A stretch of DNA of 64,000 bases, taken from the NCBI GenBank assembly GCA_963711565.1, contig CAVQEQ010000004.1, positions 212,961 through 276,960 on the forward strand, written 5' to 3'. Shown one piece after another: positions 5,727 through 54,220 of this stretch. The notes under the pieces were generated by a model. It saw nothing but the letters and a program-made list of their open reading frames with translations. It was not told where the DNA came from and ran no database searches. How positions within the stretch are numbered: position 1 is the stretch's first letter; each line of letters starts with the position of its first letter. The stretch comes from an uncultured delta proteobacterium (GTDB lineage Bacteria > Desulfobacterota > Binatia > Binatales > Binataceae). A program made the translations under genes and the position numbers.

Positions 5727-5897
5727 GGGATTCTTCGCTTCGCTCTAGAATGACACGAACAAAAAGCCCTTGAGAGCAAAATGGCGTCCTCGCCATTTTG
5801 CGATTAACACTGGGTGCAGGGGTCCGCGACGGTGTCGACACCCCCTGCCCAAGGAGGTGCGGAACCCACGGCGGGTTCCGCATTAGATAAAGTGATC
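5727..5897 (+). repeat. Structured intergenic repeat, family 1, copy A (long form, about 170 nt)
   Basis: It contains gggattcttcgcttcgctctagaatgacacgaa (shared with copy B) and an AAAATGGCG-tcct-CGCCATTTT hairpin. The core is ACTGGGTGCAGGGGG...CCCCCTGC with GCGGAACCC-ACGGC-GGGTTCCGC, homologous to the copies at 21393, 35353, 49594 and 54143. Confidence 0.8.
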
Positions 5898-5957
5898 CCC
5901 CAGACCGCCGCCTTAGCCGGAACGCACGCAATCGCATATAACTGACGCGATGACACC

Positions 5958-7463
5958 TTGCGCGCCGCGCTCCCCGATGGAGCACCGACTGTGAAAATCG
6001 GTACTCGCCTGACCCTCGTCCTGATGCTGTGCGTGATGCCGGTGATCGCCGCCTACACTTATTGGAGCGTCGCGCAGTCCAACGTCTATCTGAACGAGTT
6101 GAAGCAATCGGCGCGCGCCGTCAGCTCCGGCACGGCCCCTTCGGTTGACGAAGAAGTCATCGCCAATCAGTTCGACAAAATCGGTGACGCGTTCCGCAAG
6201 ATGGACGCGCAAGGAACGCGCAGCGCGATCCTCCGTAAGGACGGCACGCTATGGTACTCGCTGCCGGACTTCCCCAATGAACTCGTCGACGCGGCCCGGG
6301 TGCAACTCGCGCATTACCAGCCCGTTGAGTTCGGCCCGACCAGCGGCCCGATGAACTGGTTCTGTGAATTGGTCCCGCTGAAAGGAAACGGCGGCGACGT
6401 AATCGGCTATCTGCTCGAAGTCCAGGATTGGACCAAGGTGGCGCGTGATAGCCGCACGCAATCGATCGCGTCGATCGTCGTGGCGCTCTGTCTGCTCGCT
6501 ATCGTCGCGGCGGTCATCCCCGCGATGGTCTATCGGTACGTCTCGCGGCCGCTCGCCGATCTGTCGGCCAAGGTCACGAAATTTTCTTCGAGCGATTCCG
6601 ATCGGCCCGCGGGCAGCGAAGTGGAACTGCTCGGCGAAGAATTCGGCAAGCTCGATCAGCAGCTCAACAAGGCGCGCATCGATCTCGAGGATCGCCATCG
6701 GCGCGAATTGGAACTCGAACGCGAGCTGCAGCGCGCGGACCGGCTCGCCACCATCGGCGCGCTGGCCGCCGGACTCGCGCACGAAATCGGCACCCCGATG
6801 GGCGTGATCCGCGTGCGCGCCGAGTCTCTCCAACAGGACGAGACGATCGCGCCCGACTCGCGCGTCAAGCTCGGCATCATCGTCCGCCAGATCGATCGCA
6901 TCACGCGCATCGTCCGGATGCTGCTCGACTATGCGCGCAAGAGCGAATCGCACAAGGCCATCTGCGACTTGCGCACGATCGCCGAGCGCGCACTGACTCT
7001 GCTCGAGCCGGAAGCCGCGCATCGCAACGTCAGGACAATCGCTCGACTGGGAGACAATCCGCTGATGGTAAATTGCGACGCCGATCAGCTCGAACAGGTC
7101 TTCGTCAACATGATCATGAACGCCTTCGACGCGATGAATCGCAACGGCGGAACCCTGCGCGTCACCGCAAATTCTGAAAAAGGCAACGGCGGCTCGCGCG
7201 TGACAATCGCGTTCGAGGACACCGGCGTCGGCGTCGCCCCCGAGCACGAGAAAAGCCTCTTCGCCCCCTTCTTCACCACCAAGGAGCCGGGCAAGGGCAC
7301 CGGGATGGGCCTCGCCGTGAGCCAGTCTATAGTACGCGAGCACGACGGCGAGATAACCTTCAGCTCGGGCCCGACGGGTTCGCGCTTTGTCGTCGCGATT
7401 CCGATGGCGTCCGCCGAGATAGTCGAACATGAGCATGGACCCCGTGAGCAGCGGCACGCATAG
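5958..7463 (+). CDS. Sensor histidine kinase (NtrB/AtoS-like; TM, HAMP-like linker, HisKA and HATPase_c)
   Basis: The H-box is LATIGALAAGLAHEIGTPMGVI. The N, G1 and G2 boxes are FVNMIMNAFDAM...GTGMGLAVSQSIV. Two N-terminal TM segments are present. Confidence 0.8.
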   Translation: MRAALPDGAPTVKIGTRLTLVLMLCVMPVIAAYTYWSVAQSNVYLNELKQSARAVSSGTAPSVDEEVIANQFDKIGDAFRKMDAQGTRSAILRKDGTLWYSLPDFPNELVDAARVQLAHYQPVEFGPTSGPMNWFCELVPLKGNGGDVIGYLLEVQDWTKVARDSRTQSIASIVVALCLLAIVAAVIPAMVYRYVSRPLADLSAKVTKFSSSDSDRPAGSEVELLGEEFGKLDQQLNKARIDLEDRHRRELELERELQRADRLATIGALAAGLAHEIGTPMGVIRVRAESLQQDETIAPDSRVKLGIIVRQIDRITRIVRMLLDYARKSESHKAICDLRTIAERALTLLEPEAAHRNVRTIARLGDNPLMVNCDADQLEQVFVNMIMNAFDAMNRNGGTLRVTANSEKGNGGSRVTIAFEDTGVGVAPEHEKSLFAPFFTTKEPGKGTGMGLAVSQSIVREHDGEITFSSGPTGSRFVVAIPMASAEIVEHEHGPREQRHA

Positions 7464-8814
7464 CGATCAGGCAATCGTGCTGGTCGTCGACGACGACCAC
7501 GACATGGTCGCCGCGCTCAGCGACATCCTGCGCGAAGCCGGCTACCGTCCGCTGAGCGCGCATTCGGGCAATGAAGCGCTCGCGATCGTCGCGCGCGAAT
7601 CTCCCGACGTGCTGATCTCCGATCTCCGGATGGCCGGGATGAGCGGGCACGGACTGCAAGCCGAGCTGAAGCGAATCGCGCCCGATCTGCCCGTGATCAT
7701 CATCACCGCCTTCGGTTCGATTCAGACGGCGGTCGAGTCGATGAAGCTCGGCGCCTTCGATTACATCACCAAGCCCTTCAGCAACAGCGAGTTGCTGCTG
7801 CTCGTCGCGCGCGCGCTGGAAAATCGCGCCCTCCGAAGTGAAGTGAAGCGCCTGCGCATCGAGCTGGCGCGCAATCACGGCCTCGAAAATATTATCGCGT
7901 CGAGTCCGAAGATGACTGCGATGCTGAGCAAGCTCGCGCAGGTCGCCGACAGCAACGTCAGCGTGCTGATCACCGGCGAGAGCGGCACCGGCAAGGACCT
8001 GCTGGCGCGCGCGCTTCACTTCCAGAGCGCGCGCCACAGCGGCCCGTTCGTGCCCGTCAACTGCGCGGCGATTCCCGAGAGCCTCATCGAGAGCGAGCTG
8101 TTCGGACACGCGCGCGGCGCCTTCACCGACGCCAAGCAGAACAAGGTCGGCCTCTTCGTCGCCGCCAGCCACGGCACTCTCTTCCTCGACGAAATCGGCG
8201 AGATGCTCCCGACAGTCCAGGCCAAGCTGCTCCGAGTCATCGAGGACAAAAAAGTCCGCCCGCTCGGCGCGACCGGCGAGACGACCGTCGACGTCCGCGT
8301 CATCGCCGCCACCAACGCCGATTTGGAGAAAGCGGTCGCCGACGGCCGCTTCCGCTCCGATCTATTTTATCGCATCGCAACCGTCACGATGGCGGTGCCG
8401 CCGCTGCGCGACCGTCCCGAAGACATTCCGCTGCTGATCAAGCACTTCCTGATGCGCGCCGGCGCCGAGGCCGGCAAACCCCCGCCGAATCTCGACGCCG
8501 AAACGACGGATCTTCTCACGCACTATCGATGGCCCGGCAACATCCGCGAGCTGCAAAACGCGATTCAGCAGGCCGTCATCCTCTGCTCCGGCCCGCAGAT
8601 CACCCGCGCCGACCTGCCGAGCAGGATCACCGGCGACCACCACGCCCCGAATCACCTGGAAGAACTCGCGTCACGCCGAATGCCCCTGGAAGAAGTCGAA
8701 CGCCAATACGCCCGCGCCGTTCTGGCGTCGGTCAACAACCACCGCGGCGAAGCCGCCGCAATCCTGGGCGTCGACCGCAAAACCCTAACCCGCAAACTAG
8801 AAGACCCCGACTGA
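7429..8814 (+). CDS. Sigma-54-dependent response regulator (NtrC family: REC, AAA+ sigma54-activator and Fis-type HTH)
   Basis: REC domain: VLVVDDDHDMV...DLRMAGMSG. Walker A: GESGTGKDLLARALH. GAFTDA is present and ELFGHARGAF is the GAFTGA-like region. The C-terminal HTH is AAAILGVDRKTLTRKL. It overlaps the kinase gene by 35 nt. Confidence 0.85.
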   Translation: MSMDPVSSGTHSDQAIVLVVDDDHDMVAALSDILREAGYRPLSAHSGNEALAIVARESPDVLISDLRMAGMSGHGLQAELKRIAPDLPVIIITAFGSIQTAVESMKLGAFDYITKPFSNSELLLLVARALENRALRSEVKRLRIELARNHGLENIIASSPKMTAMLSKLAQVADSNVSVLITGESGTGKDLLARALHFQSARHSGPFVPVNCAAIPESLIESELFGHARGAFTDAKQNKVGLFVAASHGTLFLDEIGEMLPTVQAKLLRVIEDKKVRPLGATGETTVDVRVIAATNADLEKAVADGRFRSDLFYRIATVTMAVPPLRDRPEDIPLLIKHFLMRAGAEAGKPPPNLDAETTDLLTHYRWPGNIRELQNAIQQAVILCSGPQITRADLPSRITGDHHAPNHLEELASRRMPLEEVERQYARAVLASVNNHRGEAAAILGVDRKTLTRKLEDPD

Positions 8815-8883
8815 TTCGCGCTAGATTGGCGCCGCGCCCTCCTGAAGGTGCAGAAGACGCGAGGATGAAACCATTACTGGATC

Positions 8884-11923: not shown

Positions 11924-12982
11924 GTGGGTGTCGTGAAGGAATCGGCACGTTTCCAATTTCCAACATCCGGAAGCTTTTTGGGATCGCACTACGCGAGTTT
12001 TTCCCGGGCTGCCGAAATTGCGGCTAGTCTCCAATCGAATATCTCGATAGGCAATTCCATCTTAGCAGCTAAGTATCTTTCTCCCCCCGCGTACTTACGA
12101 AATCTTGATGTCTTCTCGACATTAGGTGCAATGACGGAGTCTTTCGAGGCGACGCGCCGGAGTATTGAGTCCTTTTCCCATGTAGCCGAGATCCCGGCCG
12201 GCCTCCGATCGACTATCTCGATAGGCAATTCCTTTTTAGCAGACAGGTATCTATCGGCCCCTGCATACTTTCAACATCTCGATGTTCTCTCGGCTTTCGA
12301 TGTGGTGACGAAGTCCTTTCATGCGACGCGCCAGATGATCGAGGCCTTTGACAGCTGCAGAAATCTGATGGACGAATTCCGTCAGTACGAAGAAACGATA
12401 GCGACAAATGCCGAAAAGCTGGGATCTCTTGGATGGACGATCCCAATGGACGCCACCATTCCAGATTGTATGCGTCTACTCGAAAGGAGCTCGAATTCCG
12501 AAACAGCGGACACGGCATTTACGGCATTTTATAACGCAGACGAGCGCGCTGCCTATTTGGCATTGAAGGAAAGGCTTCTTGCAGAAACCGAGCTAGCGAT
12601 GTGGCGAGAAGATCTGATCACAGCCCTCGCAAGGTTCGAACACGATGATTACCTCAGCTGCGTAAGCGTACTTCTTCCTAGAGTTGAAGGTTTCTTAGCG
12701 ACCAAAGGCAAGGAACCTAGATTCTACATGAAGGGAGCACGAGAGCGCTTCTTCGCGCAAAAACTGAACACCGCCGATAAGTCGCCGCTAAACGACGCTC
12801 TTTGGTGTTCCGTCAGGGCTTTTGTCGATCGTCTGTACGAGCCTGTAGACTTTACAGATCAGGTTCAGCTCACCAATCGATTGAATAGACATGCTTGTGT
12901 TCATGGACGCGGCAACTACAAACACACGCAAGCAGACTGCTTGCGCCTGTTACAAGCGCTAGACACTTTGTCATCCTTGTGA
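11924..12982 (+). CDS. Orphan protein containing an internal ~58-aa tandem duplication; low GC
   Basis: A 352-aa ORF. Residues ~28-85 and ~86-143 are about 60% identical (EIAASLQSNISIGNSILAAKYLSPPAYLRNLDV versus EIPAGLRSTISIGNSFLADRYLSAPAYFQHLDV). At the nucleotide level the duplication is 11990-12160 versus 12166-12340. No known domain was found. Confidence 0.45.
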   Translation: MGVVKESARFQFPTSGSFLGSHYASFSRAAEIAASLQSNISIGNSILAAKYLSPPAYLRNLDVFSTLGAMTESFEATRRSIESFSHVAEIPAGLRSTISIGNSFLADRYLSAPAYFQHLDVLSAFDVVTKSFHATRQMIEAFDSCRNLMDEFRQYEETIATNAEKLGSLGWTIPMDATIPDCMRLLERSSNSETADTAFTAFYNADERAAYLALKERLLAETELAMWREDLITALARFEHDDYLSCVSVLLPRVEGFLATKGKEPRFYMKGARERFFAQKLNTADKSPLNDALWCSVRAFVDRLYEPVDFTDQVQLTNRLNRHACVHGRGNYKHTQADCLRLLQALDTLSSL

Positions 12983-13023
12983 GCGAGCCGACGCATGACC
13001 TCCATGTACTTCGACGGTCGGTG

Positions 13024-14787
13024 ATGGCCAACGCCTCAAACGATCAGGCCGCCGCTGCGCTCGTTGCGCCCGATTGCCGCGGGATGAACTTTTATCGCAT
13101 CGACCGCGGATTGCGCGACCTGCTCGATCTCCATATGGAGCCGCGGTTGCGCGCCGCGATGGAGCCGCATCTCGATCGCCTCGGCCAGCTCGCGGGCGGC
13201 CGGCTCGACGAGCTTGCGGAAATCGCCGACAAGCATCCGCCGGTGCTCCATTCGCGCGATCGTTTCGGCCGCGACGAGGACTGGGTCGAGTTCCATCCGG
13301 CGTATCGCGAGATGGAGCGGATTGCTTTCGGCGAATTCGGGCTGCATGCGATGGCGCATCGGCCCGGCGTGCTCGGATGGCCCGAGCCGCTCCCGTACAT
13401 CGCGAAGTACGCGTTCCAGTATCTGTTCGTGCAGGCCGAGTTCGGCCTGATGTGCCCGATCAGCGTGACCGACACCGGCGCGGTGCTGGTCGAGAACTAC
13501 GGCAGCGCCGATCTCAAGTCGCGCTACCTCGGCCGCATGCTCTCGCAGAACATGGACGGGATTTTCAAGGGCGCGCAATACATGACCGAGCGCGCCGGCG
13601 GCTCCGATCTCGGCAACAGCGCCGTCGTCGCGAAGCGCGACGGCGATTTCTGGCGGCTCTACGGCGACAAGTGGTTTTGCTCGGCGGTTGACGGCGACGT
13701 CGTACTACTACTCGCTCGGCCCGACGGTGCGCCCAGCGGCTCGAAAGGGCTCGGGCTGTTCCTGATGCCGCGGCGATTGGAAAACGGCGAGCGCAACAGT
13801 TATCGAATCGCGCGGCTCAAGGATAAATTCGGCACGCGGTCGATGGCGAGCGGCGAGGTCGTGCTCGAGGGCGCAATCGCGTTCCAAATCGGCGCGCTCG
13901 ATCGCGGCCTGCGCCAGATGATGGACATGGTGAATCTCAGCCGCATGTCGCACGGCGCGCGCGCCGCCGGCATGATGCGCCGATGCCTCAACGAGTCGCT
14001 CGCGGTCGCGCGTCATCGCGCGGCGTTCGGCAAACCGATCATCGAGCATCCGCTGCTGCGGCGCCAGTTGATGAAACTGATGGTGCCGACCGAGCAGGCG
14101 CTGTCGGTTTTCACTTACGACGCGACGATGATGGACCGGGCGCGCGGCGGTGACGCGGAAGCCGAGCGTGTGCTGCGCATCCTGACCGCGGTGCTGAAGT
14201 TCCGGGCGTGCCGCGACAACATCCGCGTCGCGACGGGCGCGATGGAGGTGCGCGGCGGCAACGGCTACATCGAGGATTGGGTGAACTCGCGGCTCATCCG
14301 CGACGCGCATATCGGCGTGCTGTGGGAGGGCACCAGTAACATCAACGCGCTCGACGTGATCAATCGCGCAGTCGCCAAATCCGGCGGCCACGAGACGCTC
14401 GCGCGCGCGCTGAAAGCCAAGCTCCAGGCCGCAACCGCCGCTCCCGCTGCCTTCCGCGCAGAGATCGCGCAGCTAATCGATCGCGCCGTTACATTCGCGG
14501 GCGAAGTCGCATCCAAGCCGAAGAACGAACGACTGGCGCGCGTGGCGACCGACGCGCTCTACAATGTAGCGAGCGCGGCGCTGATGACGTGGGAAGGTGC
14601 GACGGCAGGCGCCAACGGCCACGACGCTCGCCGCATGATCCTCGCGCGCATGGTCGTCGAGCATCGCCTGCGCCCGGAAGATCCTTTGGCGATAGCAGAG
14701 TCAGACTGGGAAGAAGACGCGATCATCGCGCTACTCGACCCGAGCGCGGTATCCATCGAAAAAGCTGCGCGACTTGTGTCTGGCTGA
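13024..14787 (+). CDS. aidB: AidB-like acyl-CoA dehydrogenase family protein
   Basis: The length (about 590 aa) and the N-terminal extension fit AidB. The acyl-CoA dehydrogenase middle and C-terminal domains are present (YMTERAGGSDLG, GDKWFCS, EVRGGNGYIEDW). The likely start is MANASNDQ at 13024. Confidence 0.7.
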   Translation: MANASNDQAAAALVAPDCRGMNFYRIDRGLRDLLDLHMEPRLRAAMEPHLDRLGQLAGGRLDELAEIADKHPPVLHSRDRFGRDEDWVEFHPAYREMERIAFGEFGLHAMAHRPGVLGWPEPLPYIAKYAFQYLFVQAEFGLMCPISVTDTGAVLVENYGSADLKSRYLGRMLSQNMDGIFKGAQYMTERAGGSDLGNSAVVAKRDGDFWRLYGDKWFCSAVDGDVVLLLARPDGAPSGSKGLGLFLMPRRLENGERNSYRIARLKDKFGTRSMASGEVVLEGAIAFQIGALDRGLRQMMDMVNLSRMSHGARAAGMMRRCLNESLAVARHRAAFGKPIIEHPLLRRQLMKLMVPTEQALSVFTYDATMMDRARGGDAEAERVLRILTAVLKFRACRDNIRVATGAMEVRGGNGYIEDWVNSRLIRDAHIGVLWEGTSNINALDVINRAVAKSGGHETLARALKAKLQAATAAPAAFRAEIAQLIDRAVTFAGEVASKPKNERLARVATDALYNVASAALMTWEGATAGANGHDARRMILARMVVEHRLRPEDPLAIAESDWEEDAIIALLDPSAVSIEKAARLVSG

Positions 14788-14883: not shown

Positions 14884-17442
14884 GTGACTGTTAGACGAAC
14901 TGTGACGAGGCTATTGGTTGGCGCGACGGCGCTCGCAGCCTGCGGGTTCCTTTTGGGACAGGCCTCGTACGCCGGTGACGTCCCGCTTCGCGGTAATCAT
15001 CCGGCCGAAGCGGCTACTCTAACCGCGGCGGTGCGCGCGGAGAGCACGCTGCCGCTCCATCTGACGATAGTATTGGGCCTTCGCAATCAGGCTGCGCTCA
15101 CGCAACTGCTCGCCGATCAGCAAAATCCGTCGTCGCCACATTATCGTAAGTGGCTCACGCCCAGGGAGTTCGCCCGCCGCTTCGGGCCGAGCGACAAGCA
15201 GGTGGGACTGGTCACGGACTGGCTGAAAGGGGAGGGCTTCGCCGTCACCTCAATCAATCGCCTCGCGCGCACTATTCAAGCGAGCGGCGACGCCGCGACG
15301 GCAGAGCGCGCATTTTCGACGACGCTGATCACCGACGGCGTGTCGTTTGCCAACACCACCGATCCCGCGATTCCCGCGCGGTTCGACGGCCTCGTCGCTG
15401 CAATCATGGGCTTGGATAACATGCACGCCGCGATGCCCGCGGGATTGCATCGAGTTGCGCCGCCGTCGCACTCGAGTACGCAGCGCAAGCCGGAAATTCT
15501 CGCGCTCGCCGACATGACCGGCAGCCCCGAGAACGCTCCCCAGATGCCGGCCGCCAGAGAAGGTGGCTCGACTGCGTTCGGACCAATCAACGTCGAGACC
15601 TTTTACGACGAGCTGCCTCTTCTCAACGCGGGGAACACTGGTTCGCCCTCGCCGGATTGCGTAGCGGTCGACGAAGATTCCGATTATCTTCCGTCGGCGG
15701 TCACTCTGTACGACAGCACCTTCGGACTCACGCCCGCGCCGATCACGAACGTCTATCCGGACGGCACTTCGCCGGGCATCACCGGCGATGAGGTCGAGAC
15801 ACTGCTCGATATCGAGTATTCCCAGGCGACTGCTCCGGGCACGCCGATTCACCCGTACATCGGCACCAGTCTCTACGATGCGATGTCGCAAAGCGTGACG
15901 GATAATGTCTGCGGCGCGATCAGCGTCAGCTTCATCTTCTGCGGCGAGGAGTCGAGCTTCTACACGACGCTCGATATGCTCTTTCAAACCGCGGCGTCTC
16001 AGGGACAGTCGGTCTTCATCGCCACCGGCGATTGGGGTGCGGCAGGCTTACGGTACGCTGGCGGAACCTGCGTCGTCGGGACGACCAGGAATCCGAGCGA
16101 GATGGCGACCAGCCCGCACGTCACCGCGGTCGGTGGCACGACCTTCAGTCCCCAGTATAATTCGTCGGGCAACGACACCAGCGTGGTCGGCGTCGCGCCG
16201 GGCGGAATCGAGAGCGGATGGAATGCGAGCGGCGGCGGCGAGAGCGCGATCTTCGCGAAACCCATGTGGCAGACCGGACCGGGCGTGCCGGCCGACGGTT
16301 TCCGCGATATCCCCGACGTTGCGATGATGGCGTGGGCGCCTTACGTTTTCATCGGCGCCGACGACGACGGCACTGCGATAATCCAGTGCTGCTGGGGCGG
16401 CACGAGTCTCGCCTCGCCGCTCTGGGCCGGCTATTCGCGAGTCCTCGCACAGGCGTCGAGCAGCGCGCGTCTCGGTCTGCTCAACCCCACGATTTACAAT
16501 ATCGCCGACGCGGGCCTGGCTGCCGACGGCGGCATCGAAGATGTACTCAGCGGAAACAATAATTACAACGGAGTGACCGGCTATACGGCAGGCCCGGGGT
16601 TCGATCAGGTCACCGGATGGGGCAGCGTCGATATGACGCAATTCGCGAGCGCATTCACGAGCGCGCCGCATCCGACGCCTACGGCAACGACCTCGGCGAC
16701 GCCGACGCCGAGCGCCACGCCGACTGCAAGTGCTACATCGACAAGAACTTCAACTCCGACCGCGACCACATCCGCGACGGCGACAACCACCCCAACTCCA
16801 ACCGCCGCAGTCACGGCGACTCGAACAGCAACTGCCACTGCTACCGCGACTGGCACTCCGACTACGACCGCGACTGTCACTGCAACGGCAACTGTCACCG
16901 CAACCATGACTGTGACCGCAACTCCAACGCCCACCTCGATGCCAACCGCCACGGCAACGGCGACTCGAAGCGCAACCGCTACTGCAACTTCAACCACAAC
17001 TGCCACAACTACGCCGACCACGACCATGACCTCGACACCAATAGCCACGGCAACAGCAACTCGAACCGCAATCGCCACTGCAACGCCAACAGCTACGGCG
17101 ACGCCGGTTCCGACCTCGCTCAAATTCGAGCCCGCCAAGATCAAGTTTGGCAAGGTCGCCATGGGCGCGACCAGCGACGTTCAGACGGTCACGCTCTCAA
17201 ATCCGAACAAGAAGAAGGCGATGCCGATAACGCTCGAGGGATGGAATTCAACGGGCGATTTCTCGGTCTCCGAGAGTCAGACGACTTGCGCGACATTTGA
17301 GACCTTAAGCCGCGGACAGAAATGTACGATAGGCCTGACGTTCACGCCTACCGTGACGGGCGCGCGCTCGGGTACGCTCACGATTCAGGACAACGCGAGC
17401 AACAACCGGCAGGTGGTTGAGCTGAAGGGAACCGGGAAATAA
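14884..17442 (+). CDS. Secreted sedolisin (peptidase S53) with a pro-kumamolisin activation domain, a long Thr/Ala/Pro linker and a C-terminal beta-sandwich (choice-of-anchor-D/ASH-like) domain
   Basis: A signal peptide is present. GGTSLASPLWAG is the catalytic Ser motif of S53. Upstream are CGA..D/E and a GDWG-like acid pair. About 150 aa are TATAT low-complexity linker. The C-terminal ~100 aa are homologous to the C-terminus of the NHL protein at 42435. Confidence 0.8.
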   Translation: MTVRRTVTRLLVGATALAACGFLLGQASYAGDVPLRGNHPAEAATLTAAVRAESTLPLHLTIVLGLRNQAALTQLLADQQNPSSPHYRKWLTPREFARRFGPSDKQVGLVTDWLKGEGFAVTSINRLARTIQASGDAATAERAFSTTLITDGVSFANTTDPAIPARFDGLVAAIMGLDNMHAAMPAGLHRVAPPSHSSTQRKPEILALADMTGSPENAPQMPAAREGGSTAFGPINVETFYDELPLLNAGNTGSPSPDCVAVDEDSDYLPSAVTLYDSTFGLTPAPITNVYPDGTSPGITGDEVETLLDIEYSQATAPGTPIHPYIGTSLYDAMSQSVTDNVCGAISVSFIFCGEESSFYTTLDMLFQTAASQGQSVFIATGDWGAAGLRYAGGTCVVGTTRNPSEMATSPHVTAVGGTTFSPQYNSSGNDTSVVGVAPGGIESGWNASGGGESAIFAKPMWQTGPGVPADGFRDIPDVAMMAWAPYVFIGADDDGTAIIQCCWGGTSLASPLWAGYSRVLAQASSSARLGLLNPTIYNIADAGLAADGGIEDVLSGNNNYNGVTGYTAGPGFDQVTGWGSVDMTQFASAFTSAPHPTPTATTSATPTPSATPTASATSTRTSTPTATTSATATTTPTPTAAVTATRTATATATATGTPTTTATVTATATVTATMTVTATPTPTSMPTATATATRSATATATSTTTATTTPTTTMTSTPIATATATRTAIATATPTATATPVPTSLKFEPAKIKFGKVAMGATSDVQTVTLSNPNKKKAMPITLEGWNSTGDFSVSESQTTCATFETLSRGQKCTIGLTFTPTVTGARSGTLTIQDNASNNRQVVELKGTGK

Positions 17443-21353: not shown

Positions 21354-21392
21354 AGCCGGCGAGGGTTCGGCCCTTCGCCTGACAAGTTCCAA

Positions 21393-21514
21393 CAGGGACG
21401 AAGAGCCGGGATTCTTCGCTTCGCGCTGAATGACACGAAAATACTGGGTGCAGGGCTCAGCCCTGCCGAAGGAAGCGTGAAACCCACCGCGGGTTTCACA
21501 TTCGATAAAGCGAT
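21393..21514 (+). repeat. Structured intergenic repeat, family 1, copy B
   Basis: cagggacgaagagccgggattcttcgcttcgcgctgaatgacacgaaaatACTGGGTGCAGGGCTCAGCCCTGCCGAAGGAAGCGTGAAACCCACCGCGGGTTTCACATTCGATAAAGCGATT. The first hairpin carries a compensatory GGGG/CCCC to GGGC/GCCC change. Confidence 0.8.
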
Positions 21515-22680
21515 TATGCCTTGCTACAAACGTAAATCGCCGCCGGCTGGCCGAGTACCGATACGCGAATGATCTTGCTCGGCGCGATCTTGCGCGTGCG
21601 CTCGAGCTCGCGCATCAGCCGCCACTCCAACGTCAGCATCACCATCATGCCGCCGCTCCTGAGCACCCGCGCGAACTCTTTGAACCACAGTGGATACAGC
21701 TTTCGATTCTCGCCGTGCGAGCCGTAGCGCAGTCCCCACGGCAAGTTGGTGACGATTTTACTTACACTCGCGTCGCCGAGCGGCAGCGCCCCAGCGTCCC
21801 AGTTTTCGAGCTGGATTGGCTTGTAGCGCGTGCCGACGTTGACGCGCGCCGCCGCGAGCGCCGCATGATCGCGATCGCTGCCCAGCAGCATTGCGTACCG
21901 TCCCAGATGGGCCCGCTCGATCAATATCGTGCCCGCGCCGCAGAACGGATCGAGCGCCACGTCGTCCTCGCGCGGCCCGGACAGCCACGCGAGCGCCGCC
22001 GCACTCGACGCGCGGAGCGACGCCGGGCGATGGGCACTCTTGTACTCGCGATGCCGCATCTTGTCGTCGCTGAGCCGCACGGTAAGAAAAAACTCGGCGT
22101 CGATCATCGTCGCCCACAACTCAACGTCGGCGTCCTCTTCTTCCAGCCGCCAGGTGTGATCGCTGCGCTCGAGAATCCCGCGCTCGACCGCGCGCTGAAA
22201 ATCGACGCGCCGATATTCATGCTCACCGGCCATCCTGGCGATCACGCGGAACTTGAGCCTGCGGCCCGCGCGCGTCCCCGGCGAGACTTTGACGCGCGCC
22301 GCCAGCGCCGCCTCGACCAGCGGCGCCTCGCGCGACGCGCCGCGAATCTTGTCCAGTTCTTTGTTCTCCGGCCCGATAGCGGCGCGGTAGCCGGCCAGTC
22401 CGAACAGATCTTCAGCCGTGCGCAGTACGGCCAGCTTCTCGGCCGCCGGCGCGAAAAAAATCGTCATCCCGGCGCGATCGGGCACCACGCGCCGCGTGAT
22501 CTCTCTCGCGCCGCTGATTCGGCCCGCTATCTCGTCAGCCGCGATTCCCTCGAACCCCGGCTGCGTATGCGCGATGTAGAGATTAGGGCCAAAGCGTAGC
22601 GGATGCGGATGCGCGCGCTCGGGCGACGCCGCCTTGCGATCGCGCCCGGTATTTCGATACGTCTGGCGCGCGCTAATCAA
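21514..22680 (-). CDS. THUMP-domain class I SAM-dependent RNA methyltransferase (RlmL/Trm14-like)
   Basis: DPFCGAGTILIERA is the SAM-binding motif I. NLPWG is motif IV of N6-A/N2-G methyltransferases. The N-terminal region is THUMP-like. Confidence 0.65.
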   Translation of the reverse strand: MISARQTYRNTGRDRKAASPERAHPHPLRFGPNLYIAHTQPGFEGIAADEIAGRISGAREITRRVVPDRAGMTIFFAPAAEKLAVLRTAEDLFGLAGYRAAIGPENKELDKIRGASREAPLVEAALAARVKVSPGTRAGRRLKFRVIARMAGEHEYRRVDFQRAVERGILERSDHTWRLEEEDADVELWATMIDAEFFLTVRLSDDKMRHREYKSAHRPASLRASSAAALAWLSGPREDDVALDPFCGAGTILIERAHLGRYAMLLGSDRDHAALAAARVNVGTRYKPIQLENWDAGALPLGDASVSKIVTNLPWGLRYGSHGENRKLYPLWFKEFARVLRSGGMMVMLTLEWRLMRELERTRKIAPSKIIRVSVLGQPAAIYVCSKA

Positions 22681-35352: not shown

Positions 35353-35430
35353 GAATACTGGGTGCAGGGGTCACCCCTGCCGAAGGAAGCGTGAAACCCA
35401 CCGCGGGGTTCACATTCAATAAAGTGGACG
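35353..35430 (+). repeat. Structured intergenic repeat, family 1, copy C (core only), in the proB-proA spacer
   Basis: aatACTGGGTGCAGGGGTCACCCCTGCCGAAGGAAGCGTGAAACCCACCGCGGGGTTCACATTCAATAAAGTGGAC. Confidence 0.8.
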
Positions 35431-40327: not shown

Positions 40328-40517
40328 CGGCTAATACCTTCCTTGTCAGAGCCACTATTCTAACCACCGAATCTCCTCGTGTCATCACGGCGAGAGCATG
40401 GCATGGCGCGCATGGAATGGCGGGCACGGCGGCCCGCCCCACTGCATTCAATTCGATGAGTTGCTCGCGCGCGTTGCGGTCGCGAGGTGCTCCTGCTAAA
40501 GCGAAGGAAGGACGAAG

Positions 40518-42434: not shown

Positions 42435-44924
42435 CTATTTCTTCGGGTGCGTTCCCTCGCCGGTCAAGCCGACAGAACTCGGCGAGTTGCTCGCGTTGCT
42501 GTCGATCGTCAGGGTGCCGTCGCGCGCGCCGAGCGCGGTGGGCGAGAACCGGACCTTCACGGTGCATTTGGCCTTGGGCCTGATGCTCGCGCCGCAGCCG
42601 TTTACTATCGCGAAATCGCCGCCGGCAGCGATGCTCGAAAAGGTGACCGCCGTGGTCTTGCTCTTATTCTGAATCGTGACCTTGCGGGGCTTGCTGACGC
42701 CGTCATTTCCGAACACGACCTTGCCGAGCTTGAGAGCGTGCGGTGAGACCTTCAGCGTGGCGGGGACCGGCGTGACCGTGGGAGTCGCCGTAGGAGTCAA
42801 AGTCGCGGTGGCAGTCGCCGTGGGGGTTGCGGTCGCCGTCACGGTCGTAGTGGTAATCGGCGTGCCGGTAGCAGTCACGGTCGATGTCGGCGTGCCGGAT
42901 GGGGTCGCGGTCGGCGTCTGAGTCGCAGTGACAGTACTAGTCGGCGTCGCTGTTACAGTTGCAGTGTTTGTCGCGGTTGCGGTCGGGGTGCCGGTCGCCG
43001 TGACGGTCGGCGTGCCGGTTGCCGTTGCGGTTTGAGTTGCGGTCGCAGTCGGAGTTGGCGTCGCGGTGCCGGTTGCAGTTGTCGTCGCAGTGTCGGTCGC
43101 GGTCGGAGTAGCCGTTGGAGTCGCGCTGGCGGTGGCGGTCGATGTTGGCGTCTCTGTGGTAGTCGCGGTCGTCGTTGCGGTGCCGGTCGGCGTCGCCGTT
43201 GCGGTATCAGTCACCGTCGCAGTTGCGGTGCCGGTTGCCGTGACAGTTGATGTCGGAGTGTTGGTAGCCGTCACGGTCGCAGTCTGAGTCGCAGTTGGCG
43301 TATCGGTAGGTGTGGCCGTTGCGGTTGCGGTATCAGTTGTAGTCGCAGTTGCACTATCGGTAGCCGTGACAGTTGATGTCGGAGTGTCGGTAGCCGTTGC
43401 GGTCGCGGTCTGAGTCGCAGTTGGCGTTGCCGTGGCAGTATCCGTGGCAGTCGCGGCTGGCGTGCCGGTCGGCGTGGCCGTTGCGGTTGCGGTGTCAGTC
43501 GCTGTTGCGGTCGCAGTGACGGTTGGTGTCGGAGTATCGGTAAGTGTTGCAGTCGCGGTCTGAGTCGCAGTCGGGGTATCGGTCGCGGTTGTGGTTGCCG
43601 TGGCAGTATCCGTGGCAGTCGCGGCTGGCGTGCTGGTCGGCGTGGCCGTCGCGGTATCAGTCGCTGTCGCAGTGGCAGTATCGGTAGCCGTGGCAGTTGA
43701 TGTCGGAGTGTCGGTAGCCGTTGGGGTCGCGGTCTGAGTCGCGGTGGGGGTATCGGTAGACACCGCGGTATCGGTTGCGGTCGCGGTTGCGGTCGCCTTG
43801 GCCGTCGGCGTTGGACTCGAGGACGGTATCATGGGGTTGTCGAAAACTAGCACGCGATTGTTCGCCTGGTCGGCGGTGTACAGGTTGCCCGCCGGATCCA
43901 TCGCTACGCCGGCCGGATGGCACATCGCGCTGGCGCTGGGCGCGGGATCGCCGGGTGCGGAGTCGGCGCAGAAGCTGTCGGCGAAATCGGTGCCGCTCGC
44001 ACCTTGTCCAAGGACCAGGTCGGCCGTGACGTTGCCTGTCGCCACGGGCTGGTTGTATTCGAGCACGCGATTGTTGGCTTGGTCGGCGACGATCAGGTCC
44101 CCGAAACTGTCGAGGCTGACACCGACGGGATTGCAAATTCCGGTGGCACTCGGCGGCGGCCCCGCCGAGCTCGAGCATACGTCGGTCGTTAAGCTCGCAG
44201 CGGTGCCGGCGGCGCCCTGGCCGAAAACCAGGTCCGCGGTCGTGTCACCCGCGCCAGTGATTGGATTGAACAAAGCCAGCGGTTGATTGAACTCGAGCAC
44301 GCGTGAGTTGCCCGAGTCGGCGACAAACAGGTCGCCCGACGGATCGGTAAGCAGCCCGCGCGGAGTGCATAGCGTGTTCGCGGTCGGACCGCTGCCACCG
44401 TTGCATTGGCCGGTGGTGAAAATTCCGCTCTGTCCGAACACGTTGTCGGCGATCGTGTCGCCGGCGTTGAATTCGAGGACGCGATTATTGTTCGTATCGG
44501 ATACGTACAGATTTCCCAGCCCATCTACCGTCAGACCTTCCGGCATGCACATCGTCGAGGCGTTGATAGTGCCCGGGTCCGTGCCGAGGTCGCATACGTT
44601 GGTCGTGAAACTGCCGCCTTGTCCGAACACCCGAATTGCGCTCAATCCGACGGGCGGCGAACCGCCGGCAAACGGAGCGGCGTATTCGAGCACGCGATTG
44701 TTGTCGGCGTCGGCCACATACAGATCGCCCGAAGCGTCCACCGCCACGTCGATCGGATCGCATAGGCTGGCCGCGCCGATTCCGCCGTCGTTGCATCCGA
44801 TCGAGAGGGCATCTGGCTGCCCGATGACGAGAGTGGCGGGCTCGTCGTTGGCGAATGCGCCGACGTCGGCCCATCCGAGCACGCGATTGTTGAGCGAGTC
44901 GGCGACGTAGAGGCGGTACGGCAA
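42435..44924 (-). CDS. NHL-repeat surface protein, C-terminal part: NHL repeats, a Thr/Ala/Pro linker and a choice-of-anchor-D/ASH-like beta-sandwich. It is probably continuous with the ORF at 44950-46423 via a frameshift.
   Basis: Repeated ...[13 protein letters not shown]... units are followed by ~300 aa of TATAT linker. The C-terminal domain is homologous to the S53 protease C-terminus. Confidence 0.65.
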
Positions 44925-44949
44925 GCCGCCGCTGGGATCGATCGCGAGT

Positions 44950-46423
44950 CCGGCCTGCCCTGCAGCGCGGACGCCGTCGGGTTGTTGACGCCGTTATGAG
45001 ACAAGTCCGCTTCGCCGAGCACCAGGCTCGCCACCGGCGGAGACGCTTGCGGAGCCGTGTACTCGAGCACCCGGTTGTTCGATGCGTCCGCGACAAACAC
45101 GTCGCCCAGACTGTCCAGCGCAACTCCGTCCGGCTGACAGAGAACTGATCCGCTCGGCGCGATCTCGGTGGTGCCGCCGCAGACGCCGGTGGTGAAGCTG
45201 CCGCTCTGGCCGAAGACAACGTCCGCCGTCACGTCGCCGCTACCGCCGGGCGTGCCGGGCGTTCCGCCGCCGGCGGCGAGCGGGGTCAGATATTCGAGCA
45301 CGCGGCTGTTACTGATATCGGTCACGAACAAGTCGCCCGCAGCGTCGAGCGCGATTCCGCTCAAGTTGCAGAGGCCGTCCGCGCTCGTCGGATCGCCGTT
45401 GCCGTCGTAGCAGATGGAGTCGGTGAAATCGGTTCCACTCGAGCCCTGGCCGAAGACCAGGTCGGCGGTGACGTTGCCGTCGCTGCTGGTGACAGGATTG
45501 AAGGTTGTGAGCGGCTGATTGAACTCGAGCACGCGATGATCGCCATCGTCCCCGACGTAAACATTCGCCGCGCCGTCGACGGCAACTGACAAGGGGTTGC
45601 ACATCCCGACGTTGGTCGCGCTGCCGTTGTCCAGCACGCAACTATTGTCGGTAAAGTCGATGCCGCTCGCGCCTTGTCCAAAGACGAGGTCCGCGATGGT
45701 GTCGCCCGCGCCCGTGACGGGATTGAACACTCCCAACGGCTGATTGTATTCGAGCACGCGGCTATTGCCCGCGTCGGCGACGTAAAGATTGTTGTTCGAA
45801 TCGGATGCGACGCCCTGCGGAGAACACAGGCCCGCCGCCGTCTGCGCACATACGGTCTGGGTGAAGCTGCCGCCTTGACCGAACACGACATTGGCCGCAA
45901 AGCCGGCGCTGATCGCCTGCGTGAACGGCAGATTGTATTCGAGCACGCGATTGTTGCTCGTGTCCGCAACGTAGAGATTGCCCGCGCTATCGACCGCAAC
46001 TCCGCCGGGCAGGCACAGACTGTCCGCGCCAAGGCCCGCGACGTCGGCGAGCGCGGTGCCGCTATTGCACCGCGTGGTCTGAAAATCGGGTTGGCCGATC
46101 TCGATGTCCGCATTCTGGCCGTTGGTGAAGCTGTTGGCGTCATTCCAGCCCAGCACGCGGTTGTTGCTGCCGTCTACGACATACAGATGCTCGGGCGAGC
46201 TGTTCAGATCGACCGCCATCTGGCTCGGCGAATTGAGACTCGCCGCGCCGGGGTTGTTGATTCCGTTGTGCGCGAAGTCGATTTGTCCGAGCACCGCATC
46301 CGCGATGTAATCGCCGGTCGCCGCCGGCAACGCCGTCACCATGAACAGGGCGACGATTGATACGACCGCGATAGTGCCGAGACGGATGCTGGAAAATGTG
46401 CGCGACGGTTTTCGTGCGGGCAT
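44950..46423 (-). CDS. NHL-repeat surface protein, N-terminal part (signal peptide plus NHL repeats), interrupted by an apparent -1 frameshift near 44950
   Basis: The signal peptide is [35 protein letters not shown]. Units [14 protein letters not shown] and [14 protein letters not shown] are present. The frame switches inside a repeat unit (ALQGRPD | [18 protein letters not shown]). Confidence 0.6.
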
Positions 46424-46665
46424 GCTGTTCTCCATCAGTCGCCGCACGATCGATTCGACCTGCCGCAGCGAGACGACATTCAAGCAGTGTCGTGCCCGCG
46501 CAATAGCGAGGTAAGTGGGATGACAATTTGTGCCTAAACATACTGCCGCGCGAACGCCGCGGCGCGTCGCGGAGCGGAGCCACCTTCGTTAGCGTGGAGT
46601 AGGGCGAGGAGATTCGGCGGGCGCATCTTGATGGGTCGAAAAGCGCCCGTCACCGCGACATTCTG

Positions 46666-49593: not shown

Positions 49594-49697
49594 AACAGGG
49601 ACGAAGTCCCGCATCTTAGTACTGAGTGCAGGGGTCACCCCGGCCCAGGGAAGCGTGAAACACACGGTGGGTTTCACAATAAATCAAGTGATTTCAC
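49594..49697 (+). repeat. Structured intergenic repeat, family 1, copy D
   Basis: acagggacgaagtcccgcatcttagtACTGAGTGCAGGGGTCACCCCGGCCCAGGGAAGCGTGAAACACACGGTGGGTTTCACAATAAATCAAGTGATTTCAC. Confidence 0.8.
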
Positions 49698-52025: not shown

Positions 52026-52535
52026 ATGTACGCAAGTCGAACCACGCAGTTTATCGTCGGGATCTTCGCCATTCTCGGGATTGCCGCGCTCGCGGTTTTG
52101 TCTCTGTCGCTGGGCAAGATCTCAATCTTCCCCGCGCCCGGCTACACCCTCTACGCAAGTTTCGATAATATTTCAGGCTTGAAGACCGGTGATCAGGTTC
52201 AGCTCGACGGCGTGCAGATCGGCAAAGTGGTGCATATAGGTCTCAAGGACATGCGCGCGCGGGTTGCCCTGCGGGTGGACCAGGGCGTGCAGATCGACAC
52301 GGACGCGATCGCTTCCGTCAAGACCAGCGGAATAATCGGCGACAAGTACATCTCCATCGCGCTCGGCCCCAGCGAACACATCCTCGGCAACGGTGATACG
52401 ATTCGGCAAACCCAGTCGGCATTCGTGCTCGAGGACGCCATCGGCCAGCTAATCAACAATTCCGGCAGTAGCGGAGACAAGGATAAATCCTCAGATTCAG
52501 ACAAGGACCAGAAGCCCGCAAAATCGGAGAAGTAA
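52026..52535 (+). CDS. mlaD: MCE-domain protein MlaD
   Basis: An N-terminal TM anchor is followed by an MCE domain (GLKTGDQVQLDGVQIGKV...). Confidence 0.8.
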   Translation: MYASRTTQFIVGIFAILGIAALAVLSLSLGKISIFPAPGYTLYASFDNISGLKTGDQVQLDGVQIGKVVHIGLKDMRARVALRVDQGVQIDTDAIASVKTSGIIGDKYISIALGPSEHILGNGDTIRQTQSAFVLEDAIGQLINNSGSSGDKDKSSDSDKDQKPAKSEK

Positions 52536-52541
52536 CCGCGA

Positions 52542-53210: not shown

Positions 53211-53275
53211 CAGGTATGGATTCCTCGCGGACGGACAGCTACCCTTCTACCGAAGATTCTAGAGGCGACCACGCC

Positions 53276-54064
53276 ATGGAGAGGCAAATGAGATCTGGTT
53301 CGAAACAAATCGAAAGGACAGGCGCGCGCTGGATGATGCTCGCATCGTCTCTGCTTGCGGTCATTTCGTTTGCTACCCCGGCGTTGAGCCAGGCCGGCAA
53401 TCCGCAGACCCCTCCGGGCGAAAACCAGGCCGTCACCGCCGATCCCTTGTCGGGATTCAACGAGCCGATGTTCACCTTCAACCTCAAGCTCGACGACTGG
53501 GTGCTACGCCCCGTCGCCAGCGGCTACTCGTTCATCGCGCCGCAGCCCGTGCGCGAAGGCGTCGGCCGATTCTTTGACAACGCCCGCGTCATCCCGCGTT
53601 TCGCCAACAACCTGTTCCAGCTCAAGCTGGCCGAGGCCGGCACTGAAGTCGCGCGCTTCGGCATCAACACGACGATTGGGTTGGCGGGCTTTTTCGATCC
53701 GGCCGATGAGTTGTTCGGACTCGAAGAGCATCCCAACGATTTCGGCCTCACCATTCGCTATTACAACATCCCCACAGGTCCGTACCTGATGCTGCCGTTC
53801 TTCGGACCTTCGACGATTGGCGACACTGTCGGCCTGGTGGCGGACGGTGCGATGGACCCGATCAGCTACTTCGTTCCGTGGTGGGTATCGATCACAGTCG
53901 CTACCGGCCAGCGCGCGGTTGAAGCCGTAAACTATCGCTCGCTCCACATGAACCAGTTCGAGGAAGCCGACCGCTACGCGATCGATCTCTATGGCGCCGT
54001 GCAGGACGCGTACCTGCAAACGCGCGACCACGAGGTCAAGAAGCTCCACGAGGAAGAGTGGTAA
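53276..54064 (+). CDS. mlaA: VacJ-like outer-membrane lipoprotein MlaA
   Basis: GFNEPMFTFNLKLDDWVLRPVA...FFDNARVIPRFANNLFQ is the MlaA/VacJ signature. The start is at the internal Met at 53276, giving a signal peptide. Confidence 0.75.
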   Translation: MERQMRSGSKQIERTGARWMMLASSLLAVISFATPALSQAGNPQTPPGENQAVTADPLSGFNEPMFTFNLKLDDWVLRPVASGYSFIAPQPVREGVGRFFDNARVIPRFANNLFQLKLAEAGTEVARFGINTTIGLAGFFDPADELFGLEEHPNDFGLTIRYYNIPTGPYLMLPFFGPSTIGDTVGLVADGAMDPISYFVPWWVSITVATGQRAVEAVNYRSLHMNQFEEADRYAIDLYGAVQDAYLQTRDHEVKKLHEEEW

Positions 54065-54098
54065 GCCGAACGTAGTACCAGTGTAATTTGCCGACCAA

Positions 54099-54140
54099 GC
54101 GCGCCGCGGAACCAAAATTCCGCGGCGCGTTTCTTTTTCT
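54099..54140 (+). terminator. Rho-independent terminator of the mla operon
   Basis: CGCGCCGCGGAAccaaaaTTCCGCGGCGCG is followed by TTTCTTTTTCT. Confidence 0.7.
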
Positions 54141-54142
54141 GA

Positions 54143-54220
54143 ACACTGGGTGCAGGGGTCACCCCTGCCGAAGGAAGCGTGAAACCCACCGCGGGTTTCA
54201 CATTCAATCAAGTGATTTCA
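54143..54220 (+). repeat. Structured intergenic repeat, family 1, copy E
   Basis: ACACTGGGTGCAGGGGTCACCCCTGCCGAAGGAAGCGTGAAACCCACCGCGGGTTTCACATTCAATCAAGTGATTTCAC. Confidence 0.8.

Follow-up and report, generated by a model that had tools for sequence, protein, structure and literature searches.

Introduction

The repetitive extragenic palindromic (REP) sequences and bacterial interspersed mosaic elements (BIMEs) of the Enterobacteria and Pseudomonas, mobilized by RAYT (TnpA-REP), are high-copy, extragenic, short GC-rich hairpins that form mosaics with other motifs, often lie at gene 3′ ends and between convergent genes, are specific to species groups and turn over fast. The intergenic mosaic elements of Rhizobium (RIMEs) and the pneumococcal BOX elements are modular, intergenic and non-coding, with hairpin boxes in a fixed order and optional modules. 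The ends of IS200/IS605 elements and of the palindrome-associated transposable elements (PATEs), which derive from these and lack a gene, carry subterminal hairpins without inverted terminal repeats or target duplications, are oriented by replication strand and pair nucleotides that lie outside the hairpin stems. MITEs (miniature inverted-repeat transposable elements) such as Correia/NEMIS and Nezha are short, non-coding, multicopy and intergenic, sometimes extend over gene ends and vary in presence between strains. A canonical REP has the guide GT[AG]G 0–2 nt 5′ of the hairpin foot, and a REPIN consists of two inverted REPs as a doublet unit (PMC6006769). Here, a dispersed repeat with five full copies in a 64,000-nt stretch of DNA (the window; contig CAVQEQ010000004.1, positions 212,961–276,960) from an uncultured delta proteobacterium of the Binataceae is compared with these systems. 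The family is probably a non-autonomous, selfish, mosaic intergenic repeat of Binatus/Binataceae, closest to REP/BIME, RIME and BOX, whose fold is needed for its spread.

Apart from the RAYT, the GT[AG]G guide and the doublet unit, the repeat shares the traits listed above with each group. Its hairpins (stems of 7–9 bp, loops of 3–5 nt) fall within the range of REP hairpins (stem 7–20 nt, loop 2–5 nt) and are extragenic and present in many copies, and a single-strand mechanism is plausible for both. As in BIME, RIME and BOX mosaics, its non-coding intergenic motifs keep a fixed order and orientation. It differs from REP/BIME in that two unlike hairpins are tied by a covarying tertiary pair without a GT[AG]G guide, that copies are mostly singlets and not the inverted pairs with a short spacer of REPINs, and that no RAYT was found in the sampled DNA. 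RIME and BOX have no sequence similarity to it, belong to other host phyla and differ from a repeat that has a pseudoknot-type pair and a replication-strand bias. The end hairpins of IS200/IS605 elements and PATEs are alike and TnpA (PF01797) is present in the genome, whereas here the hairpins differ, no TnpA was found in the sample and no conserved target tetranucleotide could be defined. The terminal inverted repeats and target-site duplications of MITEs are both absent, and the core ends (ACTGGG.. and ..AAGTGATT) are unrelated to each other. Overall, the repeat is more ordinary in kind than the term "structured RNA family" implies, yet richer in detail. Four features go beyond the original prediction made from the window sequence: the pair of pseudoknot type, the bias towards one replication strand, the constant order of the modules and the nature of one module (M1) as a repeat linked to a GIY-YIG gene.

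Distribution of the Family

Related copies were collected by a pattern scan (one genome per species) in which hairpin 1 and a portion of the linker were the only fixed parts and core positions 29 and 49 were left free. The core was found in at least 117 stretches from at least 31 metagenome-assembled genomes of Danish soils, SPRUCE peat and palsa. Among the matches listed, nearly all genomes carry the name Candidatus Binatus, Binataceae or "uncultured delta proteobacterium" (Binatus is a member of the candidate phylum Binatota). An nhmmer search gave 182 matches in 938 kb of collected DNA, with 162 distinct near-full cores (collected stretches are cited below by L number). The density is about one extra copy per 19 kb in the ascertained loci and five per 64 kb in the window. 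The window itself (G+C ~62%) is syntenic with several core-bearing genomes at 84–93% nucleotide identity, and proteins labelled Candidatus Binatus sp. by NCBI are among the nearest homologues of the window's proteins (up to 94% identity). The ProB of the window has no exact match on record. A phage origin of the repeat was considered and rejected, with the motif present in only 2 of 2.9 million viral contigs.

The family was originally not recognized as a described one, and neither database nor literature searches contradict this. The window has no match in Rfam 15 at gathering thresholds, and at permissive E values the best matches of copies A and B (E 0.3–1) are unrelated miRNA models. A full-text literature search for repetitive elements in the Binatota, an uncultured phylum of soil and peat, yielded no description of their repeat biology. 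We have found no description of this family, which is of a REP-like kind that is already known.

Fold and Covariation of the Core

A full unit is ordered as an optional module M1, a module M2 or M3 (hairpin plus pyrimidine run), the core and a tail. The core consensus is ACTGGGT-GCAGGGG-tca-CCCCTGC-CSAAGGARGY-GYGRAACCC-acsgy-GGGTTYCRC-ATTCAATNAAGT and comprises hairpin 1 (7 bp, 3-nt loop), an invariant purine-rich linker (AAGGARG) and hairpin 2 (9 bp, 5-nt loop), usually followed by the tail AAGTGATTTCCCCTTCCC or AAGTTC.. A terminal GTGA-tt-TCAC hairpin, which the original prediction included among the family features, is peculiar to copies D and E of the window, and the final TCAC of copy E is flanking sequence (the LipA stop region common to relatives).

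Base pairing was counted for the two hairpins and a two-pair bridge in an alignment of 150 distinct copies (A1). Overall, 98.4% of the alignment cells in these positions are standard pairs, compared with 93.3% in shuffled alignments, and the covariation score is 0.135 compared with 0.050; none of 500 shuffles reached either value. Pairing falls to 36–59% if the partners are slid by 1–3 columns. Compensated swaps occur at four stem pairs, namely the innermost pair of hairpin 1 (GC 131, CG 12, UA 3) and three pairs of hairpin 2 (UA 130/CG 14; AU 125/GC 22; GC 138/AU 3/UA 3). The covariation noticed among the window copies also holds across these 150 copies.

The strongest covariation joins core position 29, the base that follows hairpin 1, with position 49, the centre of the hairpin-2 loop (GC 72, CG 69, GU 2, other 7), and the adjoining pair C28-G50 is near-invariant (143/149). 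The mutual information between positions 29 and 49 is 0.77 bit, the highest of the whole alignment, and at most 0.29 bit with any other column. Neither position shows disequilibrium with the 50:50 polymorphic positions 3, 37, and 64 that lie to both sides, and both states are found on several backgrounds, which indicates epistasis rather than the hitch-hiking of two clonal subfamilies. For a repeat family this swap, with its two states equally frequent on shuffled backgrounds, is epistasis of unusual clarity. A rare variant has CCGCGG in linker and loop alike, which is again complementary (L038, L063). As judged from the alignment, the pairs 28-50 and 29-49 imply a small H-type pseudoknot, in which two further pairs would carry hairpin 1 into the loop of hairpin 2, with the 8-nt purine linker lying alongside hairpin 2. 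RNAalifold alone returns only the two hairpins.

The alignment has 14 invariant columns, several of them unpaired (G32, G33, A34, and G36). In the subtype with GCGGAACCC in hairpin 2 the linker reads AAGGAGGTG (e.g., window 5851-5859), a full Shine-Dalgarno match whose complement CACCTCCTT is the 3′ end of 16S rRNA, and in the main subtype it reads AAGGAAGCG. The linker has a likeness to both the SRP RNA (CCGGAAGGAAGC) and a Shine-Dalgarno site (AAGGAGGTG), which was set aside and for which Rfam gives no support. The state of linker position 35 goes with that of pair 41-57 (A with A-T 130, G with G-C 24), and the register would suit a major-groove base triple. The G state of position 35 is found nearly only in one subfamily, linked to T at position 37, and the triple 35.41-57 is therefore kept only as a hint.

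A covarying pseudoknot-type pair, invariant unpaired columns and a position in triple register are what a structured RNA kept by the host might display, be it an exonuclease-blocking or insulating pseudoknot in 3′ untranslated regions (UTRs) or between cistrons, or a multicopy RNA acting in trans. We regard such a function as improbable. The signal at 35/41/57 comes largely from the one subfamily linked to T37 and neither strand has an excess of G.U over A.C mismatches; further evidence on both sides comes from the turnover, orientation and gene context of the copies.

The copies in the window have the following features (sequence coordinates of the window):

5725-5759, + strand: copy A, module M1 (CCGGGATTCTTCGCTTCGCTCTAGAATGACACGAA), a lone unit of a repeat that in relatives brackets 99-aa GIY-YIG genes
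5772-5805, + strand: copy A, module M3 hairpin, GAGAGC-AAAATGGCG-tcct-CGCCATTTT-GCGATT
5806-5897, + strand: copy A, core (covariance model 82.5 bits, E 1e-24)
5816-5822/5842-5848, + strand: copy A, hairpin 1, loop enlarged to 19 nt
C5849-G5871 and C5850-G5870, + strand: copy A, predicted pseudoknot pairs
5859-5867 (GCGGAACCC)/5873-5881 (GGGTTCCGC), + strand: copy A, hairpin 2
5882-5896, + strand: copy A, tail
21390-21405, + strand: copy B, 5′ half of module M2 (caacagggacgaagag), truncated by M1
21406-21439, + strand: copy B, module M1
21440-21515, + strand: copy B, core (covariance model 95.9 bits)
21450-21466, + strand: copy B, hairpin 1, innermost pair swapped to C-G (GCAGGGC-tca-GCCCTGC)
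C21467-G21489 and G21468-C21488, + strand: copy B, predicted pseudoknot pairs
21477-21485/21491-21499, + strand: copy B, hairpin 2
35354-35429, + strand: copy C, core (covariance model 92.9 bits), in the proB-proA spacer and antisense to the operon
35364-35380 and 35391-35399/35405-35413, + strand: copy C, hairpin 1 and hairpin 2, the latter with one A.G mismatch
40440-40470, + strand: "CACTG|CATTCAATtcgatgAGTT", a core 5′ edge fused to tail-like sequence; full element in L011 and L049
49592-49617, + strand: copy D, module M2 (cctaaca-GGGAC-gaa-GTCCC-gcatctt)
49618-49693, + strand: copy D, core; site without core in nine relatives (L049, L120-L127)
49628-49644 and 49655-49663/49669-49677, + strand: copy D, hairpin 1 and hairpin 2, one mismatch each
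54097-54132, + strand: intrinsic terminator of the MlaA gene, outside the repeat and common to relatives; left edge of the copy E insertion
54143-54215, + strand: copy E, core without 5′ module (covariance model 101 bits); site empty in eight relatives
54152-54168, + strand: copy E, hairpin 1
C54169-G54191 and G54170-C54190, + strand: copy E, predicted pseudoknot pairs
54179-54187/54193-54201, + strand: copy E, hairpin 2
63960-64000, − strand: sixth copy, degenerate and truncated by the window end (nhmmer E 0.005)
same interval, − strand: parts of the sixth copy, hairpin 2 (GTGAAACAA-acgac-GGGTTGCAC) and tail (TACAATTAAGTTC)

A covariance model (R1) built from the 150 related copies and run over the whole window with filters off returned exactly five full copies (81–101 bits, E 1e-24 to 1e-31); its remaining matches are reverse-strand palindromic readings of the hairpins of the same five copies. 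Together with inspection of the sequence this bears out the five copies with a core of ~75 nt that were originally described. A 25-nt hairpin-2 motif has four matches with at most three mismatches in the window, compared with none expected from shuffles, and copy A, which carries two swapped pairs in this motif, was recovered by nhmmer and by the covariance model. The compensatory substitutions are as first reported, with GCAGGGC-tca-GCCCTGC in copy B and GCGGAACCC..GGGTTCCGC together with the 19-nt loop of hairpin 1 in copy A. Copies C and D each contain uncompensated mismatches.

Gain, Loss, and Overwriting of Copies

Sites filled in one genome and empty in another were identified for L011 and L049 (filled) versus window position 40444, L039 versus L056 and L107, L056 versus L039 and L107, and L092 versus L082. 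Eight syntenic stretches of 20.8 kb (166 kb), chosen via homologues of an MlaF-like protein and not via the repeat, contain only two full cores, which are mutually orthologous, and none at the sites of copies D or E; two of the eight relatives' genomes carry the family elsewhere. With five to six copies per 64 kb (about one per 13 kb), the density in the window is ~7 times that of these eight relatives (about one per 83 kb). At site E, L124 and L127 have only the shared MlaA terminator and a short spacer, and in the window a 71-nt core is inserted, without duplication, at a position between the terminator T-tract and the stop codon of LipA. No terminal inverted repeats or target-site duplications were found at the filled-versus-empty sites, site E included. 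Of the REP- or MITE-like selfish element that was first suggested, the REP/BIME part agrees with copies that are gained and lost and have no link to particular genes, and the MITE part, in the strict sense, is not supported, given the missing terminal repeats and duplications. The element is, we infer, both non-autonomous and selfish.

At 40440-40470 the window reads CACTG + CATTCAAT..AGTT, as if the two-hairpin unit alone were absent, and represents either the loss of this unit or an unfilled site. A search for the junction ACTG + CATTCAAT as a footprint of excision yielded only this site (40444), and the junction is therefore no general signature.

Fourteen pairs of cores at orthologous sites were compared. 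In four pairs positions 29 and 49 are both changed, and no pair has a change at one of them alone. The pair L039/L107 has flanks that are ~97% identical, yet ~11 differences are packed into 40 nt around hairpin 2, which is of the GTGAAACCC type in one and the GCGGAACCC type in the other. Orthologous copies thus differ by swaps of whole segments, and the compensatory changes have therefore spread by copy replacement or gene conversion and not by point mutation at each locus. Variants replace each other wholesale, by gene conversion or re-insertion (concerted evolution). The covariation had been read as selection on the fold; compensated changes do keep the fold, but it is replacement of copies rather than mutation of each locus that spreads them.

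The core of L077/L115 differs at one position in 76 nt, compared with ~16 differences in 150 nt of noncoding flank. Cores that outlast their noncoding flanks at orthologous sites would also be expected of a functional RNA, but cores are better conserved because of wholesale overwriting, and this observed process accounts for their conservation. Furthermore, close relatives lack copies at the same sites and no equivalent replacement was seen, which argues against a function kept by the host.

An IS110-family transposase element of ~1.3 kb (L125:17055-18005) is inserted with an M1 unit on one side and a core composite on the other, next to a further GC-rich hairpin, and is missing at the orthologous site in L126. 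It was considered and rejected, since it adjoins the composite and does not lie within the core.

Orientation and Replication Strand

Of 169 copies, 117 have the strand of the written consensus on the locally C-rich strand; among those with |skew| > 0.05 the count is 47 of 52. The contribution of coding strands to the skew was removed by taking the mean of the skews of + genes and − genes as the remainder R. After this correction the ratio is 89:39 in favor of the C-rich strand (p 1e-5), and 66:18 where |R| > 0.03. In a regression, the gene-strand excess contributes almost nothing to orientation, and the bias persists in all four gene contexts (22:10, 22:5, 23:9, and 13:8). Skew is negative almost throughout the window and the five full copies are all on the + strand, fitting the bias; the single orientation that had been reported for the window holds for these five, but not for the degenerate sixth copy on the − strand. 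The leading strand is G-rich in most bacteria. If this is true of the hosts, the reverse complement of the consensus would lie on the lagging-strand template. An orientation that tracks replication-type skew speaks against an RNA function.

Gene Context and Transcription Signals

Copies of the family are intergenic and have no association with particular genes. Altogether, 156 of 169 copies lie outside rough gene calls, and the neighboring genes are arranged as <E< (44), >E< (38), >E> (29), and <E> (28), where E denotes the element. The neighbors are unrelated housekeeping genes or members of large metabolic families; when all neighbor proteins were clustered in search of a recurrent partner gene, only SDR, acyl-CoA dehydrogenase, enoyl-CoA hydratase, ABC transporters, and amidase emerged. 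The mixed contexts seen in the window were confirmed by Pfam: copies A (Crp-type regulator, histidine kinase) and D (TPR protein, CofC) lie between divergent genes, copies B (RlmKL-like methyltransferase) and E (MlaA, LipA) between convergent genes, and copy C between proB and proA.

The downstream gene converges on the tail in 90 of 157 cases. Its stop codon lies 2–44 nt past hairpin 2 in 80% of these and inside the tail in about one-third, and the repeat therefore reshapes protein C-termini. In the window, the converging methyltransferase gene (21514-22680, − strand) has its stop codon within the tail of copy B, the stop codons next to copies C and E lie at the edge of the tail, and the tail of the sixth copy abuts the ATG of gene 62944-63993 (− strand). 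The repeat thereby flags annotation trouble, as gene callers will misplace stop codons in tails.

REP hairpins in E. coli stabilize upstream mRNA. The tail lies near a converging stop codon in the 90 of 157 cases given above, which would place the reverse strand of the repeat in the 3′ UTR of that gene. Against such a function stand the lack of a constant orientation to genes and the absence of a promoter or terminator in the scans. No sigma-70-like promoter belonging to the element was found around copies A, D, and E (the scan covered sigma-70-type promoters), nor did these copies have a hairpin plus T-run of their own; the only terminator called was that of MlaA beside copy E. The sequence after hairpin 1 is CSAAGGA and that after hairpin 2 is ATTCAAT, neither of them a T-run as in an intrinsic terminator, and M2 and M3 resemble a hairpin with a pyrimidine run but fail the terminator rule. 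With no sigma-70-like promoter or terminator of its own, sites D and E empty in eight relatives, no constant orientation to genes and an orientation that tracks replication skew, the dispersed small-RNA gene family of the original prediction is not supported.

Modules and the GIY-YIG Mini-Gene

Modules were searched with blastn-short over the collected loci. M2 (consensus ttctaaca-GGGAC-gaa-GTCCC-gcatctt) lies 5′ of hairpin 1 in 45 of 165 hairpin-1 matches and an M3-type hairpin (gagagc-AAAATGGCG-tcct-CGCCATTTT-gcgatt and variants) in 39, and M1 is found still further 5′ in 16. All three modules are always on the same strand as their core. Conversely, 45 of 51 M2 and 39 of 46 M3 matches have a same-strand core downstream (6/51 and 7/46 do not). 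The window copies follow this order, and the pieces that had been seen to recur among them are modules of the family: the piece shared by copies B and D is M2, complete in D and reduced to its 5′ half in B, and the additional hairpin of copy A is M3. Hairpin 1 and its TGGGT leader are also found solo, as tandem arrays, or joined to a different second hairpin (L030, L036, L093, L098, and L100).

Eight of the 10 pairs of cores that lie <500 nt apart are head-to-head, with their tails towards genes, from which it follows that the tail is the outer, gene-facing end of the unit and the 5′ modules its inner side. Head-to-head pairs include 16 of 169 copies (spacers 105–323 nt); the other copies are singlets.

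L017:3627-3790 and L117:2424-2590 have surroundings that are ~98% identical and differ in the M3 hairpin, which is AAAATGGCG-tcct-CGCCATTTT in one and AAAGTAGTGCGC-tgcg-CGCAACTTT (M3b) in the other. The swap sits between identical outer bases and is the sole difference there. Template switching within quasi-palindromes during replication is an established mechanism, and the compensatory changes might be mutational in origin, with a change in one arm copied into the other so that the hairpins perpetuate themselves. The exchange of whole hairpins in an identical context and the fact that most compensated changes lie inside perfect inverted repeats are in line with this. It cannot explain the covariation of positions 29 and 49, which lie outside any palindrome and are separated by the 5′ arm of hairpin 2, nor the invariant unpaired bases of the linker or the fixed module order, and we consider it highly improbable as the source of the pattern.

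M1 is a separate repeat that is linked to a 99-aa GIY-YIG gene and is not specific to the core. The 5′ extension shared by copies A and B, originally taken as a part of the family, does recur across it as M1 but belongs to this second repeat. In relatives, the MlaA-LipA spacer contains a 99-aa GIY-YIG nuclease open reading frame (ORF) between inverted M1 copies in a 389-bp unit (L121:13014-13402; also L123:13043-13426). The same layout was found at three further independent loci (L128:2884-3520, L129:2729-3694, and L130-L132, with L132:223-708). A reverse M1 lies 13 nt before the ATG, and a forward M1 follows 7–8 nt past the stop codon in L121, L123, L129, and L132 and is degraded in L128, L130, and L131. 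The sequence "cTAAaagat" 5′ of M1 in copy A is similar to the "stop codon + aaaaagat" seen before M1 in the GIY-YIG units. At some of the GIY-YIG loci M1 variants are split by ~40-nt inserts. The protein family has at least 7,964 relatives at E ≤ 1e-10 and is multicopy, with several copies per genome (two on one 4.58-Mb contig). NCBIfam has no model for it, and literature searches gave no description of M1-like repeats that bracket a GIY-YIG gene. By analogy, the layout resembles a REPtron with a GIY-YIG in place of an HUH enzyme.

The nuclease might drive the whole family in a REPtron-like manner, if it made breaks or nicks at folded modules that were repaired from other copies and so spread and homogenized the modules. 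The ORF is bracketed by M1 at four independent loci, two of which (L128 and L129) have tandem arrays of three to four further M1 units, and the protein family is very large and multicopy. M1 keeps one orientation upstream of the 16 cores (of 165) that have it, window copies A and B among them, units of the type hp1-M3c-hp1 lie ~800 nt from the ORF in L130-L132, and homogenization by copy replacement is observed. The link to the nuclease, however, is established for M1 alone, and M1 is lacking from 149 of 165 cores. In 83 kb of L120-L123 the gene and M1 are present without any core, and the window contains cores and solo M1 units but no 99-aa GIY-YIG ORF. We therefore regard the nuclease as quite an unlikely driver of the core; it would, if confirmed as one, represent a possible second kind of REPtron, with a GIY-YIG instead of an HUH nuclease and repeats of its own.

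A second dispersed repeat, CTAACCCCTAACCCCTTCCC-n4-GGGAAGGGGAAC, forms a CCCCTTCCC/GGGAAGGGG hairpin and often adjoins the core family (L122:~12990-13400, L049:1487-1525, L013 near 4950-5050, L069, and L078). It forms a long palindromic block in L122.

Mechanism of Spread

For a selfish repeat of the REP/BIME type the fold would be recognized on a single strand by a trans-acting enzyme, and the substrate would most likely be single-stranded DNA exposed at the replication fork, in analogy to the ends of IS200/IS605 and to REPs that are handled by Y1/HUH transposases. The constraint on the fold would then probably act on the copies that propagate and not on each inserted copy.

Several observations weigh against the repeat being such an element. 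There is no GT[AG]G guide, with an invariant TGGGT before hairpin 1 and AAGYG before hairpin 2, and the reverse strand has TGAAT and CTTSG at the hairpin feet, again without the guide. The two hairpins are dissimilar, unlike those of REPs and IS200/IS605 ends. No Y1 transposase was identified in the six-frame ORFs of the 938 kb (phmmer with IS200/IS608 TnpA queries, a weak negative), and the ORFs that fill gaps next to repeat clusters are of ordinary kinds (D-Ala-D-Ala ligase, ParA-like, DndB-like, or unassigned), with no Y1 transposase among them. No clean junction that showed a conserved target was obtained, and most of the "empty" sites contain replacement sequence instead of a simple gap. 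The strand bias does not exceed ~70:30 and derives from the GC skew of 8-kb pieces rather than from mapped origins. Within a locus, copies do not share an orientation (36 same, 34 opposite), which is partly due to the head-to-head pairs. Mismatches of the G.T and A.C types are equally common (~18 versus ~22) and uninformative on the folding strand, and the top and bottom strands fold equally well (−29.5 versus −29.0 kcal/mol). Finally, the conserved unpaired bases and the pseudoknot would suit a functional RNA as well.

A more novel variant has the core as more than two palindromes, a folded single-strand module of hairpin, 2-bp pseudoknot and hairpin, perhaps with a linker triple, that serves as the substrate of an undescribed mobilization system, for which the GIY-YIG REPtron-like pairing would be the best lead. 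The available data make this doubtful, and a new multicopy catalytic or protein-binding RNA would be less likely still.

Whatever its mobilizing enzyme, a repeat of the REP/BIME kind that is gained, lost and overwritten in this way provides strain typing with a lineage marker whose changes outpace point substitution, and its copies mark where short-read assembly and binning will break. The family also constitutes a natural experiment on how a selfish repeat keeps its fold.

Other Features of the Window

A giant NHL-repeat protein is encoded in two overlapping ORFs (42435-44924 and 44642-46483) at 42435-46483 on the − strand, a split that suggests a frameshift or an assembly problem. The protein has a low-complexity linker with a 6-nt period and a C-terminal ASH/Cep192-type Ig domain. 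The block of the window at 42.4–48.6 kb that includes it is missing in L049 and varies in size and content among L120-L127. A sedolisin-like (pro-kumamolisin) protease at 14884-17442 (+ strand) shares the same kind of 6-nt-period linker (16600-17120) and a C-terminal ASH/Cep192-type domain. A tandem duplication of 174 nt with 74% identity is located at 11999-12346, inside an ORF (11924-12982) without a Pfam match.

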